In this document: piece after piece, positions 2,055 through 19,208 of the stretch
Position numbering within the stretch: position 1 is the stretch's first letter
Layout of the letters: the number at the start of each line of letters is the position of its first letter
Source: an archaeon
Lineage (GTDB): Archaea; AGJL01; Methanococci; Methanococcales; Methanocaldococcaceae
Assembly (NCBI GenBank): GCA_024278985.1
Contig: JAJRSC010000005.1
Location: forward strand, 40,188 to 64,187
Direction: 5' to 3'
DNA: 24,000 nt
Notes under the pieces: model-generated
Database searches by the model: none
Seen by the model: the letters and a program-made list of their open reading frames with translations, nothing else
What the model was told of the DNA's origin: nothing
Program-made: the position numbers and the translations under genes

Positions 2055-2983
2055 AATAGTTCCTTTCTAAGTTCTCCTAAGGTAGTATTTATTTCAGCAA
2101 AAGCATTATGCCTATGAATACTCTCAAAATTTATCTGTTTTATATGAACTTTTGTTTCATCTGGTAGATGGTTGAATTTTTTAACAATTCTGTTTGCCAT
2201 TTCCCTAACACAATCCTCTACAAATTTAGGGTTAGTATGGCTTTTTTTAACAACATATGCCTCATCTACTCTCTTCAATATTCCATAAATTTCTGCACTC
2301 ATTGAATTTTTTATTATATTAATAATATCTAAAATCTCAACATAATAATCTTCTGGAATTTCAAGAATTATTTTTCCAATTCCTCTTTGGTTGTGGGTTG
2401 CAAAAATAACACTATCCAATATTTTTAAAATATCCTCATCACTAAATCCTTTATTTTTTAAATTTTCAATACATATTTCTTTTATTAAGTTCTGAGCACA
2501 TGGGCATGCAGTTATTCCAACAACTTCTGCTCCTACTATTTTAGTAATCTTTAAATTATCATTTTCTTTAATTCCTTTAGCCCCTCCAATTATTTTATGA
2601 ACTTCTTGAGAGATTTTTTTTGAGATTGGACTCTTTTCTTCTAACATAAAATCACTAATCATTAACACCTCAGCCCTATTTGCATATTCATGTTTCTTAA
2701 ACAATCTTTTAACAATTTCCTCACATATTGTTTCCATTTCATAACTCTCCATTTTTAATGCTTCATCAATTATTTCCTCTATAACTTCTGGATGCCTTGA
2801 CATATGTATTCCTTTTTGGGAACTTGGTAAATTAACAGAAACATCAAAGGTTGGAAGTAATATTATAGGTCTTTTTCCATTTCTTTTTATTCTAACAAGT
2901 TTTTTTAAATTAGATATACCAACCTTTGTTAAGGATATTTTTATATCTGGTTCTATATTTTGTATATCACATTTCCAATTCAT
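2051..2983 (-). CDS. mptA: GTP cyclohydrolase MptA (FolE2/MptA family, methanopterin biosynthesis)
   Basis: 310 aa with the family hallmarks QKGIHMSR and ITACPCAQ. Methanogen genomic context. Confidence 0.85.
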   Translation of the reverse strand: MNWKCDIQNIEPDIKISLTKVGISNLKKLVRIKRNGKRPIILLPTFDVSVNLPSSQKGIHMSRHPEVIEEIIDEALKMESYEMETICEEIVKRLFKKHEYANRAEVLMISDFMLEEKSPISKKISQEVHKIIGGAKGIKENDNLKITKIVGAEVVGITACPCAQNLIKEICIENLKNKGFSDEDILKILDSVIFATHNQRGIGKIILEIPEDYYVEILDIINIIKNSMSAEIYGILKRVDEAYVVKKSHTNPKFVEDCVREMANRIVKKFNHLPDETKVHIKQINFESIHRHNAFAEINTTLGELRKELL

Positions 2984-4196
2984 TTTTATCCCCTAATAAA
3001 ACATCAATTAACTCTCTTGATAGTCTATAATAAACATTGTTTCCTTTTCTTTCTTTATAAATATATCCCATTTCATAAATATCTGAAAGATGTGTTCCAA
3101 TAGTTCCAGGAGATTTTTTTAAATATTCTGAAAGTTGTGTTACTGTTGTACTACCTCCAAGTTTTGCCATAGCCTTAACAATTTCAGATTGAGCAGGAGT
3201 TAAATGGTTTAAAATCTGATGTCCAATACTTATTCCCAAAGAATGTATTGCTTCACTAACAATTTTCTCATCTATTTTATTTAAGTTCTTTTTTATAGCT
3301 ATTGATATAGATTCTGAACATGTCATTATTATTTTTCTTGGTATCCCATCACATAATTCAACAATTTTATCAATTGCCTCTCTAGTAAATGGTTCAAATT
3401 CTTCAGCCCCTTCTATATGAGCATCTTCTAATCTTCTCCTAATTAAGTCATATGATTCTTCTGTTGAAAGAGGAGGCATATTTATAATCTTTGGAATTCT
3501 ATCCTTTATAGGTGGAGATATTTTAGTTAGGTCTTCCATCAATGTTGGAGAACCTGCTAAGAATGTTAATATTCCTTCTTCATATAAAAAAGAATGGAAA
3601 AATTGTAAGAGTGATAAACAACTTTTCTTAGCAAATTGGTCAGCTTCATCTATTAAGATTATACATAATTTATTCCTATCTTTAACTTCATTAATTAAAA
3701 ATTCTAAATCCCTCTCTATTCTCTCTCTTGGATAATGTATAGGAACTTTATCTCCATAGTTGTTTAATTTTTTGTACATATCAATTATTTTAGAGGAATA
3801 CTCCAAATAATCAGATTTTATTGTTCCATTTATTGTAAATAAATTTTCTGTTAAAATATTGTATAGTAATTGGATTAAAAACTGTCTTGGAGTTATTTGT
3901 GATGCTGTAAGTTCTACGACCCAATGACCTTGTTTTTTTGTAGCATAGTATATAATATTAAGCATTGAACTTTTACCAATTCCTTTAGTTCCTACAATTG
4001 CTGCATTGGCAACACTACCATGCATTGCTGACCCTAAAATTTCTCCAATTTCTCTTAACTCACTAACCCTTCCAACAAAAAATTTTGTGTTTCCTCTAAT
4101 AGGCTTTTCTGAAAATGGATTATACTTTAATTTAAGTTTATGCATAGTGTTTGTTATCGACCTTGCCGATTCTTGTATAAATTCAATTGGGTCCAT
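2967..4196 (-). CDS. Highly divergent Orc1/Cdc6-like AAA+ ATPase with C-terminal winged helix
   Basis: 409 aa. Canonical Walker A GTKGIGKSS and Walker B CIILIDEADQF. Lid-like GIPRKIIMTCSESISIAI in the position of GDAR-AIDLL. C-terminal wHTH (TVTQLSEYLKKSPGTIGTHLSDIYEMGYIYKERKGNNVYYRLS). GGTGAG Shine-Dalgarno 4 nt before the ATG. Faces a 620-bp AT-rich gap. Confidence 0.6.
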   Translation of the reverse strand: MDPIEFIQESARSITNTMHKLKLKYNPFSEKPIRGNTKFFVGRVSELREIGEILGSAMHGSVANAAIVGTKGIGKSSMLNIIYYATKKQGHWVVELTASQITPRQFLIQLLYNILTENLFTINGTIKSDYLEYSSKIIDMYKKLNNYGDKVPIHYPRERIERDLEFLINEVKDRNKLCIILIDEADQFAKKSCLSLLQFFHSFLYEEGILTFLAGSPTLMEDLTKISPPIKDRIPKIINMPPLSTEESYDLIRRRLEDAHIEGAEEFEPFTREAIDKIVELCDGIPRKIIMTCSESISIAIKKNLNKIDEKIVSEAIHSLGISIGHQILNHLTPAQSEIVKAMAKLGGSTTVTQLSEYLKKSPGTIGTHLSDIYEMGYIYKERKGNNVYYRLSRELIDVLLGDKNELEM

Positions 4197-4230
4197 AAAC
4201 TCACCACTAAATTACTATCGTAATTAGAAT

Positions 4231-4254
4231 ATATGCACTTCGAAAATTAGAAAC
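4231..4254. repeat. Diverged copy of the ATGCA-TTCGAAAA-type element, about 35 nt upstream of the Orc-like start
   Basis: atatgcacttcgaaaattagaaac aligns with catacatgcaattcgaaaactcgaaaac at 5711-5738. It sits beside a probable TATA (rc gcatatattc). Confidence 0.5.
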
Positions 4255-4325
4255 TTTCTATTTTAGAATTTCGTCAATTAACTAAATTTAAATCTATAAA
4301 ATAATTTTTTATTTCTTTTAAAAAC

Positions 4326-4373
4326 GTGAATATAATTTTATTACATTAAAAATATTGTGAATATAATTTTATT
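4326..4373 (+). repeat. Two perfect 17-bp direct repeats GTGAATATAATTTTATT (4326-4342, 4357-4373), 31-bp period
   Basis: Read directly from the sequence; both copies are identical. Confidence 0.9.
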
Positions 4374-4471
4374 TTTTTGTATTTTATATTAATAATCCCT
4401 CAGAAATAAACTTTAATAATTTTACAATAAATATATAAACTATTCTTATGAAATAAAGTTTTTTTTAATTC

Positions 4472-4483
4472 TTCTCATGAGAA
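4472..4483. repeat. Perfect 12-bp palindrome TTCTCATGAGAA
   Basis: Self-complementary on inspection. Confidence 0.85.
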
Positions 4484-4661
4484 TAAAAAATACATAAGTA
4501 AATATAAATTATCATGAATCTAACATTTTTATAATATATAAACTATGAATCAAATTTTATTATAGTTATAACAAGTATAAAATATCTGAGATAAAAATAA
4601 AATAAAAAAAGAAATCATTTTATATTAGAAATTATGTTGAGTTTTATCAAATCTATAAAAA

Positions 4662-4680
4662 ATTGAAAATTATTTTCAAT
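4662..4680. repeat. 9-1-9 palindrome ATTGAAAAT-T-ATTTTCAAT
   Basis: The two arms are exact reverse complements. Confidence 0.85.
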
Positions 4681-4829
4681 ATTAACATAGTAATAAAAAT
4701 CCATAAATTTATGATAGTAAATTATAATATGAATCTAAAGGTATTTATATGATAAAAAGAAAAAATAATTGAGCAACTGTAAAGATAAAATATAAAATTT
4801 TATTAAAAAAATAAAAATTGGTGATTAAT

Positions 4830-5357
4830 ATGGAAAGATTGCCATATGAGGTCGTATCAACTATATTCAGAAAAGCCATTTTACACTATTTAGTAATAAC
4901 CGGACAAGTATTTCCTACAAAATTATCCAAAGATTTGGGTATATCAAAAGGACTCTCATCAGGGTTTTTAAGACTATGTAACGCTTTAGGTGTAGTAAAA
5001 AGAGAAAGAAACAAACATAAAGTTTTATATTCACTAACGGGTAAAGGAGTGGCAGTTTTAAAAAGATTAGCGCCCGAAATATTTGATTTAAGTTTTAGTG
5101 AGGTTTTCGAAACACTTTCGAAAAGTAAGTTTTCTACTAAACATTACCCATTAGCCAAGTTAGGATTTAGAATAGAGTATGAAGAAGATAACTTCAAGGG
5201 AGTGACTTTTTACTTTTATGACTATGATAACAACCTTTTAGGAACGGTATATAGGAATTCTCAGAATATTTGGTGGTGTAGTATATGTAAAAAAGAGGCA
5301 TGTAAGCATATCGATTACGCCAAAAAGCTATATAATAAATTGAAAAATATAAATTAA
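4830..5357 (+). CDS. Winged-helix DNA-binding protein with C-terminal SWIM-like zinc finger, function unknown
   Basis: GGTGAT Shine-Dalgarno 4 nt before ATG 4830 (the track's TTG at 4818 is less likely). wHTH-like segment PTKLSKDLGISKGLSSGFLRLCNALGVVKRERNKHKVLYSLTGKG. C-terminal WWCSICKKEACKHIDYAKKLY shows a CxxC-x4-CxH pattern. 175 codons without a stop in very AT-rich DNA. Confidence 0.6.
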   Translation: MERLPYEVVSTIFRKAILHYLVITGQVFPTKLSKDLGISKGLSSGFLRLCNALGVVKRERNKHKVLYSLTGKGVAVLKRLAPEIFDLSFSEVFETLSKSKFSTKHYPLAKLGFRIEYEEDNFKGVTFYFYDYDNNLLGTVYRNSQNIWWCSICKKEACKHIDYAKKLYNKLKNIN

Positions 5358-5360
5358 TAA

Positions 5361-5393
5361 TTTTCGAGTTTTCGAGTTGCATGTATGTATATG
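5361..5393. repeat. Left arm of a 33-bp inverted repeat (TTTTCGAGTTTTCGAGTTGCATGTATGTATATG)
   Basis: Its reverse complement matches 5705-5737 at 32 of 33 positions. Begins 3 nt after the stop of the wHTH-SWIM gene. Confidence 0.9.
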
Positions 5394-5704
5394 CCACGGT
5401 TGTGTATATAGAAAATTTTTAGAAAAAAATTATCACAAAAATTTTAGGCAGTAGTATGCTCTTTTTTAGTTTAGATAATACAGTATTTTAGAGATTTTAT
5501 AAAAATGTCAACAAATATTTTTTTGTTTTTGTGAAAAATAATAATTTGACATTATTATATTTTATAATTTTTATTTTATTTTATTTTTTTAATTTAACAA
5601 ATAAATTTTTTATAAAATTCTTTTATTGTACAAAAACAAAAATTAATAAAAAATTTTTGTTGTGATAATTTTGGTTTATGTGTTTTGTATATCTTTCCCT
5701 TAAC
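5394..5704. other. 311-bp ultra-AT-rich core between the inverted repeats (DUE-like)
   Basis: I count 10 G/C in 5521-5640 (120 nt). There is an uninterrupted 47-nt A/T tract at 5551-5597. Inner imperfect inverted repeat aaattatcacaaaaatttt / aaaatttttgttgtgataattt. 8-bp inverted repeat AATGTCAA/TTGACATT. No ORF. Confidence 0.6.
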
Positions 5705-5737
5705 CATATACATACATGCAATTCGAAAACTCGAAAA
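5705..5737. repeat. Right arm of the 33-bp inverted repeat (CATATACATACATGCAATTCGAAAACTCGAAAA)
   Basis: One mismatch to the left arm, at 5722 (T versus C). Contains a tandem TCGAAAAC x2. Confidence 0.9.
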
Positions 5738-5840
5738 CCTTATTTAAAAAGTGATTATATTTATGTATCAACAATACACAAGTGTTTTTAAATTTCAAAA
5801 AAATAGTAATAAAACATTTACCTTAAAATAGAAATATTTC

Positions 5841-6197
5841 CTATATATCACTCGAAAACTCGAAAATACAGCAGTCTAACAGAAATAGTGATATAAAAGA
5901 ATTGTATTTATTTTTTTTGTATTTCCTCAATAATTCTATAAACTTAGGAGTATTTTTTTTCTTTAATTTAAACCTAATCTTACCTCTAACTTTGTATTTT
6001 GCTAAAATACCCATATTACATAAATCATTTAAGTATTTATATAGTGTTATATATTTAAAATCTACTTTGTTATAAATATCTTCAATTTTAAAACTTTTTA
6101 GTTTAATAACTATTTCAACAAGCTTTTTATATTTTCTATCAACTATGTAGGGAAGTATTTTAAGCCATGGAATTTTTAATTCTCTAATTGTTTTTAA
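5841..6197 (-). other. In-frame continuation after the TAG stop of the upstream ORF, encoding a winged-helix domain (split gene, pseudogene or readthrough)
   Basis: My reverse translation directly after TAG 6200-6198 gives LKTIRELKIPWLKILPYIVDRKYKKLVEIVIKLKSFKIEDIYNKVDFKYITLYKYLNDLCNMGILAKYKVRGKIRFKLKKKNTPKFIELLRKYKK...SSDI*. That is 118 sense codons with no stop in DNA that appears very A/T-rich by eye. There is no ATG/GTG/TTG before residue 62. Confidence 0.55.
5849..5868. repeat. Additional direct copy of the CTCGAAAACTCGAAAA core
   Basis: cactcgaaaactcgaaaata. The core at 5851-5866 is identical to 5730-5737 plus the preceding unit. It is enclosed by a perfect 9-bp inverted repeat, TATATCACT (5844-5852) and AGTGATATA (5887-5895). 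Confidence 0.8.
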
Positions 6198-6878
6198 CTA
6201 CCTTTTACAGTGTTTTAATATTATTTCAATTACTTCTAAATTACCATTTGTTATATTATAAAGATGTTCTGCTACTTTTCTACTAATACAATAGCCAAGT
6301 TTTTTAGCAAAGTATCTAATAACTCCAATAATATTTATTATTCCTTCAGGAAAATGTTTTAAAACTTCTTTATGGCACTCTATAGGATACCTTAGAACAA
6401 CACTTATATTATTTTTTCTTAGTTCTTTAACAAATCTTATAAAACTCTTTTTATAGTTCCATTTTCTAATGTCATGAATATCCAAAACAATAATTGGATT
6501 TATTGATTTTAATATAGCTAATAACTTACCTCTAACTTTATAAAAATCCCAATTTTTGATATTGATAAAAAACTCCTTTATAGCCTTAAACCATGCCTTT
6601 TTAGCTCTATAATGTTTTTTAAAATATTTTTTTTCTACAATATAATTAAATAAATTTTCAAACCATCCAGAATTTTTATTAACTAAATAATATTTATCTT
6701 TTAATAAAAATGCTAATCTTAAAATTATCTTTTTAATGTTTGGAGTTCCCAATACTCTAAATATTGGAAATTTGTTAAAATAAAATTCACCACCCTCCTC
6801 TAAAATATTCTCTCTATGAGTTGGAAATAAATATAATCCATTAAAAAATTCTTCAGGTATATCTTTAATTATCATCAT
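6198..6878 (-). CDS. Degenerate AAA+ (Orc1/Cdc6-like fold) protein lacking intact ATPase motifs; ends at a TAG followed by an in-frame WH domain
   Basis: 226 aa. P-loop position reads VLGTPNIKK (lysine kept, glycines lost). Walker-B position reads PIIVLDIHD (no DE). Lid or sensor-2 position reads NITNGNLEVIEIIL (compare GDAR-AIDLL; arginine lost). The ATGATG start overlaps the cbiL stop by 14 nt. Confidence 0.5.
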   Translation of the reverse strand: MMIIKDIPEEFFNGLYLFPTHRENILEEGGEFYFNKFPIFRVLGTPNIKKIILRLAFLLKDKYYLVNKNSGWFENLFNYIVEKKYFKKHYRAKKAWFKAIKEFFINIKNWDFYKVRGKLLAILKSINPIIVLDIHDIRKWNYKKSFIRFVKELRKNNISVVLRYPIECHKEVLKHFPEGIINIIGVIRYFAKKLGYCISRKVAEHLYNITNGNLEVIEIILKHCKR

Positions 6879-7548
6879 CTTTAATCCTTTTAATTATTGC
6901 TATAGAGAGATAGTCAGAAAATTCATCAAAATTTATATTGTCTATGTTCCCAATAGCTATTTTTTCATCTTCAAATGTAGCCCTTTTAACTAATCCAACA
7001 ATTATATTTTTATTATTGATTTTTTTTAATACATCTTTTAAGTTTTTTGTTTTCATTACTATTATAGTATCAAAATCATTAATATACTTTTCAATATCTT
7101 TACCATGTGGTAAAATACATAATTTTTCATTACCCTCTACTAATGGCATATTTAATGCTTTAGCAGCTGAAAATATGGATGAGATTCCATTTATTATTTC
7201 AACTTTAACCCCTTTTTTTGCTAAAATTTTCCAAATATATGAGAAAGTACTATATAAAGTAGGGTCTCCAAGAGTTAGAACAGCAACATCTTTATTTTCT
7301 TTTAAAATTTTTTCAGCTGCTTTTTCCCTATAATATTTTAATTTTTCTTTATATTTAATCATAGGAAATAGAAGTGTTTCAACTTCTTTATCTTTAATAT
7401 AATCCTTAACAATTTCATAGGCAACTGATGGTTTTCCTTCTTTTGATATTGGAACAAATATTTTATCAACTTTTTTTAATATATTTAAAGATTTTAGGGT
7501 TATTAATTCTTTATCTCCTGGTCCTACTCCAATACCATAAACAATCAT
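6865..7548 (-). CDS. cbiL: Cobalt-factor II / precorrin-2 C20-methyltransferase
   Basis: 227 aa. MIVYGIGVGPGDKELITLKS is the tetrapyrrole methylase N-terminal motif, followed by VLTLGDPTLYSTF. AGGGAT Shine-Dalgarno. Confidence 0.8.
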   Translation of the reverse strand: MIVYGIGVGPGDKELITLKSLNILKKVDKIFVPISKEGKPSVAYEIVKDYIKDKEVETLLFPMIKYKEKLKYYREKAAEKILKENKDVAVLTLGDPTLYSTFSYIWKILAKKGVKVEIINGISSIFSAAKALNMPLVEGNEKLCILPHGKDIEKYINDFDTIIVMKTKNLKDVLKKINNKNIIVGLVKRATFEDEKIAIGNIDNINFDEFSDYLSIAIIKRIKDDDN

Positions 7549-11736: not shown

Positions 11737-12092
11737 AACATCTCACCTAAATAACCTCTAAACTAATTAACTTAAGTTAATTTTTATTTATATTTTATTT
11801 TATCCTAATAAATTTATATATGTTAATATTCTGCTAATATATTATTATGTATATTAAAATATATATTACTTTGTTAGTAATAATAAAGAAAATAAAGAAA
11901 CAACTAACAGTATGATTATGGATAAACTATTCTTTATTAATTCTTAACTACACTTTTTGACAACTTCATAAAATGATATCCCATTTTTGTGGCTTAAATA
12001 TTCGATACAATTAAATAGCATCCCTATTTGTTTTAAAAATTCGATATTATAATAAATAATTTCCCTTAACGTCTAAAATCGATTTATCTCGT

Positions 12093-15615: not shown

Positions 15616-16445
15616 AAGAAGTGTATAAGTTAATAGATGTCTCATACAAATACCCTAATGGAGTTGTAGCATTAGAAAATGTAAATTTAACTATATATAA
15701 AAATGAAATTGTAACTATTTTAGGTCCTAATGGTGCAGGAAAGACAACACTTCTAAAAATTTTAGATGGTCTTATATTTCCAAGCAAAGGAGAGGTTTAT
15801 TTTGAAGGTAAATTATTAACTGAGAAGTTATTAACAGATAAAAAATTAATGGCAGATTTTAGAAAAAAGGTTGGATTTGTTTTTCAAAACCCTGATGTTA
15901 TGTTATTTAATCCAACTGTTTGGGATGAAGTTGCTTATTCTCCACTACATCTTTATTCTAAAGAAAAGGCACTTGAAGTTACTGATAAAGTATTAAAAGA
16001 TATGAAAATTTACCATCTAAAAGATAGACATCCATATAATTTAAGTGGAGGAGAAAAAAAGAAGGTTTCAATAGCATGTATATTGTCTATTGAACCTGAA
16101 GTTATTTTAATGGATGAACCTACAGCATCCTTAGACCCTAAAAGTAGAAATGAAGTTATTAACCTTATAAAATCATTTAAAGAAAAAGGAAAAACAGTTA
16201 TTTTAATAACTCATGATGTAAATATTGCTTCTTTAGCTGATAGATGTTATGTATTAAATAAAAAAATAATATTTGAAGGAACTCCAAAAGAATTATTTTC
16301 ATTAGATTTAGATGAGTTAAATCTAGATGTGCCTGATGTATCAAAACTATTTATTAAATTAAAAAATATGGGATATAACATAAATGAAATTCCATTAACA
16401 GTTGATGAAGCTGTTAATTTACTAACTAAAAAATTTAAAATTTAG
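15612..16445 (+). CDS. cbiO: ECF transporter ATPase component CbiO
   Basis: 277 aa. Walker A GPNGAGKTT, Q-loop, signature LSGGEKKKV, Walker B ILMDEPTASLD, H-loop THD. Confidence 0.9.
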   Translation: MKEVYKLIDVSYKYPNGVVALENVNLTIYKNEIVTILGPNGAGKTTLLKILDGLIFPSKGEVYFEGKLLTEKLLTDKKLMADFRKKVGFVFQNPDVMLFNPTVWDEVAYSPLHLYSKEKALEVTDKVLKDMKIYHLKDRHPYNLSGGEKKKVSIACILSIEPEVILMDEPTASLDPKSRNEVINLIKSFKEKGKTVILITHDVNIASLADRCYVLNKKIIFEGTPKELFSLDLDELNLDVPDVSKLFIKLKNMGYNINEIPLTVDEAVNLLTKKFKI

Positions 16446-16508
16446 AAATAAAAATTTAAATATATTATTTAAAAAATAAAATTAAAAAAATAAAAAAATA
16501 TAATATTA
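16446..16508. terminator. 63-nt spacer of 100% A/T between the convergent cbiO and cbiN-position genes
   Basis: No G or C between the two stop codons. The minus strand carries several T7 runs just after its stop. The plus strand has only short T-runs. Confidence 0.4.
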
Positions 16509-16850
16509 TTACATAGGTTTTGGATTAACTATTTTAACAAGTATGTAATAAGCTCCAACACATAATGCAACTCCAACTATTGCAGATATAATATAACCAA
16601 TTGATGCATGAAGAGGGTCATCCCATCCAGGGATATCATAGTCTGGAAGAGGTGCATAACTCCAAATATCAGCTAAATGTAGCATTCCACTAACTTTTTG
16701 TGCTCCTACTTCTTTAGCAAGTTCTGAAGGGTCCCATTCTCCCCATGCATCTCCATAGTTCCAAACAAGAAGTATCCCTAAAGGACATAAAATTATCATA
16801 GCAACAATTAAATAAACAAATTTTTTAACTAAAGGGTCCTGCCAGTTCAT
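16509..16850 (-). CDS. Small two-TM partner of CbiM/NikM (PDGLE-like, CbiN/NikN position)
   Basis: 113 aa with TM segments at both ends. The central WGEWD...APLPDYDIPGWDDPL recalls my memory of the PDGLE domain rather than a classical CbiN. 4-nt overlap with the M component. Confidence 0.6.
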   Translation of the reverse strand: MNWQDPLVKKFVYLIVAMIILCPLGILLVWNYGDAWGEWDPSELAKEVGAQKVSGMLHLADIWSYAPLPDYDIPGWDDPLHASIGYIISAIVGVALCVGAYYILVKIVNPKPM

Positions 16851-17521: not shown

Positions 17522-17699
17522 TTTTTCACCTCATATAATAATTATATATTATTACTAAATAAATTATTTGTATTACTATATAAGTTTTTTTATAATTATA
17601 GTATTAACATATTTTATCTTAAGATTTAAATTTATCTTTATATGTGTTCATAATATATTTAATTAATATATATAAAAATAATAAATCTTAGGAATTTAT

Positions 17700-18111: not shown

Positions 18112-19208
18112 GTTAAAATCAGACCGTTACGGTATGGAAACCTGATTACTTTAATTTTTTTAACTTCTTTTTTGTCTTGTTAAAATCAGACCGTTACGGT
18201 ATGGAAACTTATTGATGAATTTGAATATTTTGATTGATGTATTGAGTTAAAATCAGACCGTTACGGTATGGAAACTATCTCTTTATTCTCATGCCTCTAT
18301 CCCTCCATATTTGTTAAAATCAGACCGTTACGGTATGGAAACTTTAAATTTAAGAAAAACCCTGAATTATGGAAAAAAAGTTAAAATCAGACCGTTACGG
18401 TATGGAAACAAATCAATTAATATATTTTTCTCACCATCAATTTCAGTTAAAATCAGACTGTTACGGTATGGAAACGACAATTAATCCTGAAGCCCCAGTA
18501 ACAGTAATACTGTTAAAATCAGACCGTTACGGTATGGAAACCAATAAAAGATAAGAAAATATCAAAGCCATATTATTAGTTAAAATCAGACCGTTACGGT
18601 ATGGAAACGCAACTGCTATTAATATCCCTGCTCCAAGCAATATTGTTAAAATCAGACCGTTACGGTATGGAAACATCAAAATATTCAAATTCACCAATAA
18701 TAAAAATCAAAAGTTAAAATCAGACCGTTACGGTATGGAAACTTAACAAGTTTTTTAGTTTTTGATATTAAATTATCTGTTAAAATCAGACCGTTACGGT
18801 ATGGAAACAATATTTTTTTTAGATATATAATATATGATGGGGTAGTTAAAATCAGACCGTTACGGTATGGAAACATCAAAATATTCAAATTCACCAATAA
18901 TAAAAATCAAAAGTTAAAATCAGACCGTTACGGTATGGAAACATTACATTATCATAATGAGAATATAAAAGAGGTGAGGTTAAAATCAGACCGTTACGGT
19001 ATGGAAACCAGTTTTTTGTATGTTCTTCATATTGTCTTTCTTTTAGTTAAAATCAGACCGTTACGGTATGGAAACATAAAATTACAGCATTACAACTCTT
19101 GCTGTAATAAAGGTTAAAATCAGACCGTTACGGTATGGAAACTTTTTTATTGTTGAGGTTAGCATATCCTCATTTGGCGTTAAAATCAGACCGTTACGGT
19201 ATGGAAAC
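18112..19208 (+). CRISPR. CRISPR array: 17 x 30-nt repeats GTTAAAATCAGACCGTTACGGTATGGAAAC, 16 spacers of 36-38 nt
   Basis: Repeat starts: 18112, 18179, 18246, 18313, 18380, 18446, 18512, 18579, 18645, 18713, 18779, 18845, 18913, 18979, 19046, 19113, 19179. Plus orientation follows from the GAAAC 3' end, the leader on the left and a degenerate repeat on the right. Repeat 6 has C>T at 18459. Confidence 0.97.

Follow-up and report, generated by a model that had tools for sequence, protein, structure and literature searches.

How is chromosome replication started in Methanococcales? Initiation in this order is described as an open problem, Orc1/Cdc6 proteins having long been thought absent (PMC3984812, PMC5333045). 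The question is raised afresh by a stretch of 24,000 nucleotides from a Methanocaldococcus-like methanogen (assembly GCA_024278985.1, contig JAJRSC010000005.1, positions 40,188 to 64,187), henceforth the window, in whose coordinates all positions are given. Two arms of a near-perfect inverted repeat bound there a unit of 377 bp (5361-5737), about 1.2 kb from the start of the gene of Mc-pRIP, a divergent Orc1/Cdc6-like protein, with one small gene in between. The local order is Mc-pRIP (-), a first intergenic region (IGR1), ORF175 (+), a second intergenic region (IGR2) that contains the repeat, X340 (-) and CbiL (-). The original prediction had left the choice between two readings, an origin where inverted origin recognition boxes (ORBs) flank a DNA unwinding element (DUE), and a miniature inverted-repeat transposable element (MITE). 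It is argued here that the unit probably forms the symmetric core of the region in which this archaeon replicates its chromosome from an origin, the best reading of its sequence being an origin core of the ORB-DUE-ORB type, built with a non-canonical box. An origin is supported because the element exists as a single conserved syntenic copy, with Mc-pRIP as a neighbour, and MCM in three genera.

Two inverted boxes and what lies between them

A repeat search of the window returned the two outer arms, 33 nt long, 97% complementary and with 311 nt between them (coordinates are collected in Table 1). Direct reading confirmed the predicted single mismatch at 5722, where T stands in place of the expected C. 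The arms are far longer than expected by chance: in 60 dinucleotide-preserving shuffles of the window, searched for inverted repeats with at most one mismatch and a loop of at most 1 kb, the longest had a mean length of 17.2 nt and never exceeded 20, against the 33 observed. Each arm opens with a short dyad, TTCGA-N4-TCGAR, which folds into a small hairpin when isolated, and continues towards the core with a tract of alternating purines and pyrimidines; the tracts of the two arms are the longest such runs of the whole window. The imperfect similarity that had been noticed inward of the arms is indeed present, and it holds a perfect 10-bp inverted pair, ATTATCACAA and TTGTGATAAT, which has the same centre of symmetry, at 5549, as the outer arms. 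As a single strand, a 389-nt stretch that holds the element has a far more favourable fold than shuffled sequences (z-score -10.65).

The region enclosed by the arms has a GC content of 16%, which falls to 12% between the inner boxes. A recount agrees with the predicted figures of 10 G/C in 120 nt at 5521-5640 (GC 0.083) and of an unbroken A/T tract of 47 nt at 5551-5597. Of the two flanks, TAATAA contains the stop codon with which the upstream gene ends, and the other reads CCTTAT; the original prediction gave the same letters, and there is no target-site duplication. One block of the core, CTT(T/A)TAT(T/A)GTG/A-AAAAA (5618-5640), is conserved. It precedes the right inner box by about 25-40 bp, has no mirror counterpart of similar strength in the left half, and may serve in initiation or be promoter-like.

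A single locus in Methanococcales

How often does the element occur, and where? Species-representative genomes, viral contigs and metagenomes (241 million records) were scanned with a degenerate 20-mer of the arm, TTCGARTTTTCGARNTGCAT. Among the species-representative genomes, inverted matches paired at a distance of about 355 bp were confined to Methanocaldococcus/Methanococci records, and the scan returned Methanocaldococcus indicus and three metagenome-assembled genomes (MAGs). The collection, or its index, does not cover this clade fully: four genomes whose arms match the pattern exactly (M. jannaschii, M. infernus, M. vulcanius and Methanotorris igneus) were missed. The complete chromosome of M. 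indicus has one locus. In genome coordinates the element lies near 864.9 kb in M. indicus (CP186926), near 40 kb in M. vulcanius (CP001787) and near 106 kb in M. infernus (CP002009). Seventeen single matches to the 20-mer fell in unrelated bacteria, without the rest of the arm, and the two found in viral contigs, in identical context, did not extend past the 20-mer. In metagenomes the match extended to the arm in five low-GC contigs among 64 loci, each flanked by ORF175 and/or X340-CbiL (tblastn). Every genuine arm of the three collections stood at the ORF175/X340 locus. The original prediction held that a single conserved syntenic copy would favour an origin or a regulatory element, and a single locus, kept across four genera, is what we found.

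Orthologous loci were compared in eight named taxa (M. villosus, M. indicus, M. infernus, M. vulcanius, an M. jannaschii-type assembly, Methanotorris igneus, Methanothermococcus and Methanococcus maripaludis), and in contigs from MAGs and metagenomes. The module IGR1-ORF175-IGR2-X340 is present in all of them. IGR2 sits between two stop codons and, because ORF175 and X340 converge, it requires no promoter; this convergent-gene spacer measures 480-620 bp in every genome examined. Both inverted boxes are found in the IGR2 of every genome compared (11 genomes, four genera), at a distance from arm start to arm end of 360-378 bp; absence from the orthologous loci of close relatives, which was to count against a function, is thus not observed. 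The 22 arms of these genomes yield a 32-nt consensus, TTTCGAGTTTTCGAGTTGCATGTATGTATATG, identical to the left arm of the window from 5362 onwards. Mean pairwise identity reaches 0.85-0.86 in the outer arms and about 0.8 in the inner boxes; in the 35-nt spacers it drops to 0.35-0.38, and in the core to 0.50, a value near that expected from composition, so that the sequence of the core is unconserved. The inner boxes read ATTATC(A/G)CAA in 9/9 Methanocaldococcus and Methanotorris sequences, and the locus comparison found none in Methanococcus and Methanothermococcus. Such a pattern is what a pair of protein-binding sites with constant spacing would give, the intervening DNA being apparently constrained in composition and length only. 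Furthermore, within a genome the arms are on average 2.6 mismatches apart, as against 4.6-4.8 for arms of different genomes, and both arms of M. villosus read TTCGAATTTTCGAAGTGCATATATG; this likeness fits a pair of sites that would track one binding specificity.

The company of the element is that of replication genes. Mc-pRIP, a putative replication initiator on which origin predictions in the order are based (PMC3531139; PMC4009838; bioRxiv 10.64898/2026.08.15.744077), is adjacent, in the same layout, in M. villosus, M. vulcanius, M. jannaschii, Methanotorris, Methanothermococcus and M. maripaludis. The gene immediately upstream of X340 codes for MCM in Methanotorris, Methanothermococcus and M. 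maripaludis, and for CbiL in Methanocaldococcus. In M. indicus it is a GINS23 gene, part of a GINS23-L44e-S27e cluster, that borders IGR1. With Mc-pRIP, MCM in three genera and GINS23 in M. indicus, the neighbourhood is a replication island.

The dyad of the arms has relatives in the vicinity, and nowhere else in the window. All 13 matches to TTCGAR (9 sites) fall within a 1.6-kb region, 4239-5864, when shuffled windows have 5.3 matches on average, spread anywhere, and never 13. Because of this clustering TTCGAR is not a general promoter element of the organism; TTCGAA was considered as its generic B recognition element (BRE), and this was ruled out, TTCGAR occurring nowhere else in 24 kb. Three copies without a complete arm deserve mention. 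The c-element, at the end of X340, has related sequences in the corresponding position of M. indicus, M. infernus, M. villosus and Methanotorris. The d-element recurs upstream of Mc-pRIP in M. villosus, M. vulcanius, M. jannaschii, Methanotorris, Methanothermococcus and M. maripaludis, all with an adjacent Mc-pRIP, and it is absent at the relocated Mc-pRIP of M. indicus. The e-element, inside ORF175, has an equivalent, TTTTTCGAGTGTTTTCGAAA, in M. vulcanius, Methanotorris, Methanothermococcus and M. jannaschii; its conservation could come from protein-coding constraint, which makes its status as a site uncertain.

Replication origin or something else

Two inverted ORBs with an intervening DUE are the accepted minimal structure of archaeal origins (bioRxiv 10.64898/2026.08.15.744077; PMC4010727). 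Transposed to the window, the two inverted boxes of 32-33 bp would be recognition sites for a winged-helix initiator, each combining the short dyad TTCGA-N4-TCGAR with the inward-pointing alternating tract. The likeliest initiator would be the neighbouring Mc-pRIP, with ORF175 and X340, a protein predicted to resemble subunits of the origin recognition complex (ORC), as possible partners; alternatively, the ATTATCRCAA boxes farther in may be the sites to which ORF175 or X340 binds. Once bound as mirror images of each other, the proteins would place MCM on the A/T-rich core, about 220-310 bp long, and the core would then melt. The dyad-only copies, in the promoter of Mc-pRIP, inside ORF175 and at the end of X340, would be auxiliary or autoregulatory sites, similar to mini-ORBs. 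The sequences themselves show the anatomy and its statistical significance, the occurrence at a single locus, the synteny throughout the order, and a conservation that holds boxes and length while leaving the core sequence free; the assignment of proteins to boxes, and the placing of unwinding and initiation in IGR2 rather than in IGR1, are what we infer.

A comparison with the origins of Orc1/Cdc6 systems (Sulfolobus oriC1, Pyrococcus abyssi oriC, Methanothermobacter oriC) brings out several common features. All are intergenic, lie beside an initiator gene and belong to an island of replication genes; they have two long inverted boxes that enclose some hundreds of bp of A/T-rich DNA; each box joins a short dyad to an asymmetric extension; and dyad-only, mini-ORB-like copies are scattered around, also at the promoter of the initiator itself. 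This arrangement parallels the organisation in full ORBs and mini-ORBs known from Pyrococcus (PMC1904270). The box of the window is, however, unrelated to the ORB consensus TCCA[CG]T[TG]GAAA..GGGGT (PMC4164010, Table 1): its dyad has a 4-bp spacer, and its extension is an alternation of purines and pyrimidines, not a G-string. The presumed initiator, Mc-pRIP, is so divergent that it was long thought absent (PMC3914693, PMC3984812). The window element differs further in having a second, inner pair of inverted boxes and in being separated from the initiator gene by another gene, while in two species the two are unlinked; and it is known from sequence alone. The WhiP-type oriC3 of Sulfolobus, organised as IR/ucm/IR and served by a winged-helix Cdt1-like protein, also associates inverted repeats with a small winged-helix gene outside the AAA+ family, a place held here by ORF175. 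In contrast, the motif 5'-TACTACTACTAC-3' given for WhiP-type origins has no similarity to the boxes of the window. ORF175 combines a single winged helix with a domain like a zinc finger, and sequence and domain searches detected no homology between it and WhiP or Cdt1.

Several observations weigh against an origin in IGR2. Reviews report that no Methanococcales origin has been demonstrated experimentally (PMC3984812; PMC5333045). The canonical ORB or mini-ORB consensus, a TCCA..GAAA dyad often with a G-string, is not matched by the arm consensus, nor is any expression of Table 1 in PMC4164010; an ORB-DUE-ORB origin finds support in the inverted geometry, the synteny and the neighbouring initiator, and none in the sequence of the box. 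Cumulative GC skew has no turning point at 5.4-5.7 kb within the 24-kb window, which is too short for this purpose; with the Z-curve a signal has been reported in M. jannaschii and an inconclusive result in M. maripaludis (PMC3984812). Measured by nearest-neighbour energy, the core melts no more easily than three other 100-bp stretches (17534-17634, 16415-16515 and 11768-11868), its 47-nt A/T run is the second longest of the window, and in a genome with 26% GC an intergenic A/T-richness like that of the core is ordinary. The core had been called extreme: this is correct for the counts, and it is not exceptional for this genome. A/T-richness as evidence for a DUE was set aside as weak, other intergenic regions being equally rich. 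Mc-pRIP is elsewhere in M. indicus, about 446 kb away, and in M. infernus, and therefore its adjacency is not obligatory; IGR1, ORF175, IGR2 and X340 remain together in both species despite the relocation. Both the c-element (CGAG-TGATATATAG) and the d-element (CGAAG-TGCATATAT) end in TATA-like sequence, and part of the motif could be related to promoters, not to an initiator. Finally, the concerted evolution of the arms could result from gene conversion between them.

What else could place such a repeat between two convergent genes? In shape alone, with terminal inverted repeats of 33 bp around a non-coding, A/T-rich core of 311 bp, and a size of some 380 bp, the unit has the features of a non-autonomous transposon. 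It has none of the behaviour of one: it is single-copy on the complete M. indicus chromosome, all genuine arms of the metagenome, species-representative and viral collections stand between ORF175 and X340, and the orthologous site is occupied in 11 genomes of four genera, with a diverged core and conservation confined to the boxes, as in an ancient, vertically inherited locus. Dyad-only copies belong to neighbouring genes and promoters, and no target-site duplication accompanies the element in the window or in any orthologue. Because all genuine arms are at one locus and there is no such duplication, the MITE, one of the two readings first offered, is refuted as far as the scanned collections allow, and we give it next to no credit. 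It is also quite improbable that the arms, together with the c-element, work in pairs as promoters or operators of short non-coding transcripts running into the core, or that IGR2 codes for a structured or antisense RNA, the inverted symmetry then reflecting convergent transcription units or an RNA hairpin. Such functions would account for the BRE/TATA-like ends of the c- and d-elements, for the conservation, on the right side of the core, of a TATA-like block (CTTTTATTGT / CTTATATTGTG), and for the long hairpin that a single strand would form. Yet the core is free in sequence and indels while its length is fixed, the TATA-like part of the full arms is 12-14 nt away from CGAG, not adjacent to it as in archaeal promoters, and TTCGAR is found at no other promoter in 24 kb. 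The stable RNAs of A/T-rich hyperthermophiles are reportedly G+C-rich, as Klein, Misulovin and Eddy are said to have described in 2002, and the region, with 12-19% GC, contrasts with them. A search of Rfam with 4150-5900 gave no match even at E<=1, apart from a chance snoRNA match inside ORF175. A sigma-70 scan gave 23 promoter sites against 18 expected, and a terminator search no intrinsic terminator, both with models that are uninformative for an archaeon.

The more substantial competitor lies next door. Origins of Methanococcales have been predicted adjoining Mc-pRIP (PMC3531139, PMC4009838), and for Methanococcaceae Ori-Finder 2 uses the 'ORB' motif TT[TA][GT]ATTCA[TC][GA]AT[AT]T[AT]T[AT] (PMC4164010, Table 1). 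This motif matches, with 0-2 mismatches, the five repeats of IGR1 (4318-4738), and it does not match the arms at <=3 mismatches. The published origin prediction of the order thus appears to be the neighbouring spacer: IGR1 measures 687 bp in the M. jannaschii-type locus, the same length as the oriC interval that Zhang and Zhang reportedly proposed in 2004 (694,540-695,226). Would the true origin then be IGR1, with the IGR2 element as an accessory site in the origin region, bound by ORF175 and/or X340? This appears unlikely to us, although less so than a promoter or an RNA. As an accessory site the element could be a regulatory or architectural platform, a loading or centromere-like segregation site, or a fork barrier. 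In favour of IGR1 speak not only the published motif but also an even lower GC content (14.7%), the order-wide conservation of IGR1 itself, the constant presence of the winged-helix proteins ORF175 and X340 on both sides of IGR2, and the fact that IGR2 keeps company with these two when Mc-pRIP relocates. However, the IGR1 repeats all point in one direction and lack the inverted-box geometry of IGR2, resembling iterons more than an inverted ORB pair; IGR1 must also accommodate a pair of divergent promoters, and these may be the reason why so much of it is conserved; the proximal end of the Mc-pRIP promoter carries a dyad of IGR2 type, not a TGAAT repeat; and the prediction is purely in silico, just as that for IGR2.

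The origin core in IGR2 that we prefer is therefore to be set beside predictions already published. With the oriC predicted next to Mc-pRIP (Zhang & Zhang 2004; DoriC 5.0; Ori-Finder 2) it shares the locus and the MJ0774 initiator family, the window being orthologous (PMC3531139; PMC4009838), and differs from it in the motif, five direct repeats of IGR1 there, the arms of IGR2 here. According to a 2026 preprint on Ori-Finder-Arch, the oriC of M. jannaschii conforms to an ORB(-)/DUE/ORB(+) pattern (bioRxiv 10.64898/2026.08.15.744077), a geometry which, of the two spacers, IGR2 has. No description of the IGR2 inverted repeat was found in the accessible literature, a scope that leaves aside the motif table of Ori-Finder-Arch (Table S4), where the element may already be in use.

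Our analysis suggests that automated annotation of origins in the order relies on the motif of the neighbouring spacer, and that the true site of unwinding may lie about 1 kb from the place so annotated. The element offers short candidate sites conserved throughout the order (two 32-bp boxes, two 10-bp inner boxes and dyad-only satellites), and three candidate binding proteins are encoded around it, which makes the question of initiation directly testable, including in the genetically tractable M. maripaludis. Should Mc-pRIP bind the boxes, the Orc1/Cdc6 superfamily would have a second, very different type of ORB. A bolder proposal, in which we place little confidence, goes further: the IGR2 element, and not the published IGR1 interval, would be the actual start of replication in Methanococcales, and its non-canonical box would be read by a heteromeric ORC-like assembly of Mc-pRIP, X340 and ORF175. 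If true, this would be an archaeal origin-recognition system of several distinct subunits, encoded around the origin and beside the MCM gene.

The genes around the element

Table 1. Features of the element and its surroundings, in window coordinates.
Feature	Position	Strand	Description
Mc-pRIP (MJ0774 family)	2967-4196	-	divergent Orc1/Cdc6-like AAA+ ATPase, C-terminal winged helix
IGR1	4197-4829	intergenic	GC 14.7%, between Mc-pRIP and ORF175
d-element	4229-4254	-	degenerate box GTTTCTAATTTTCGAAGTGCATATAT, upstream of Mc-pRIP (about 33 nt from its start codon); 3' part BRE/TATA-like
Five same-orientation repeats	4325-4335, 4356-4366, 4513-4523, 4544-4554, 4728-4738	+	(C/T)(G/A)TGAAT(A/C)(T/A)AA, in IGR1
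ORF175	4830-5357	+	N-terminal ArsR-like winged helix and C-terminal WWCxxC-x4-CxH zinc-finger-like motif
e-element	5103-5124	no strand	tandem TTTTCGAAA-N3-TTTCGAAAA inside the ORF175 coding sequence (..VFETLSK..)
IGR2	5358-5840	intergenic	contains the inverted-repeat element
Left outer arm	5361-5393	+	ORB-like box; dyad TTCGA-N4-TCGAG, then core-facing alternating purine/pyrimidine tract TGCATGTATGTATATGC (17 nt, perfect)
Left inner box	5429-5438	+	ATTATCACAA; 35 nt inward of left arm
A/T-rich core, candidate unwinding element	5439-5659	no strand	GC 12%; includes the 47-nt A/T-only run 5551-5597
Right inner box	5660-5669	-	TTGTGATAAT, reverse complement of left inner box; 35 nt inward of right arm
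Right outer arm	5705-5737	-	left-arm box inverted; one mismatch, at 5722; alternating purine/pyrimidine run of 16 nt
X340	5841-6878	-	Methanococcales-only protein, C-terminal winged helix; in-frame TAG 6198-6200
c-element	5850-5867	-	third copy of arm dyad half (ATTTTCGAGTTTTCGAGT), then GATATATAG; overlaps the last codons and stop of X340

The window includes genes for MptA, TFE, RpoE', Spt4 and CbiL, and its best protein matches are in M. indicus, M. infernus and M. villosus. Mc-pRIP matches the domains PF01637, PF13191 and PF01022, with a weak match to TIGR02928 (orc1/cdc6), and is 87-92% identical to its Methanocaldococcus orthologues. In M. indicus (CP186926) the relocated gene (6001-7215 of the retrieved locus) is packed between a NiFe-hydrogenase gene and CdhD and has only 25 bp of spacer upstream of it, and the breakpoint of the rearrangement coincides with the d-element. 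The IGR1 repeats at 4325/4356 and 4513/4544 form pairs spaced by exactly 31 bp, and the repeats are conserved across genera. Midway in IGR1 (about 4431-4477), a TATA-like block ATATATAAACTATTCTTATGAAATAAAGTT...AATTCTTCTC is strongly conserved in 6/6 aligned genomes; it may be the promoter of an unannotated transcript, or a further binding site. ORF175, divergent from Mc-pRIP and convergent with X340, directly abuts the left arm. A homologue search found its relatives in Methanococcales only, and its AlphaFold model, with a predicted local distance difference test score (pLDDT) of 57, was too poor for a structure search.

X340 has relatives in Methanococcales only: among 1.84 billion representatives a profile search retrieved just 8 proteins, and members of this X340/X360 family are found in the retrieved orthologous loci L026 (3272-4342), L030 (3166-4248) and L031 (3191-4297). 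When the AlphaFold model of the M. indicus orthologue (pLDDT 74, predicted TM-score 0.69) was submitted to Foldseek, three groups dominated the matches: ORC/Cdc6 subunits (human ORC5, ORC4 and ORC1; Aeropyrum ORC1 and ORC2), which match the predicted fold best, the archaeal Walker-type ATPase PABY2304, and AAA+ proteins of the STAND and clamp-loader kinds, with E-values that are marginal (5e-4 to 1e-2) and low TM-scores (0.2-0.27). At the position of the P-loop, after a strand at 38-45, X340 has TPNLKKT, and a strand at 130-135 ends in D-x-H-D. From this model, a degenerate ORC-like AAA+ protein with a degenerate P-loop is a reasonable but weakly supported identification, and X340 may be an unrecognised ORC-like paralogue. 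At the level of sequence, profile searches, including that of the 1.84 billion representatives, gave no link to Orc1/Cdc6: against PDB sequences and Pfam the X340 profile returned winged-helix traces only, and hhalign aligned with Mc-pRIP the winged helix alone, with a probability of 14%.

The in-frame TAG of X340 stands where orthologues have Glu or Asn. The remainder of the frame is intact and conserved up to the normal stop, and the public annotation of the same contig ends the protein at the TAG, at 225 amino acids. The TAG could be an error of sequencing or assembly, it could be a nonsense mutation that arose recently, or it could be read through. Farther away, at 18112-19208, the window carries an array of clustered regularly interspaced short palindromic repeats (CRISPR) with 17 repeats of 30 nt (Rfam CRISPR-DR13), preceded at 17534-17690 by a leader-like stretch, very rich in A/T, which ranks with the DNA of the window that melts most easily.

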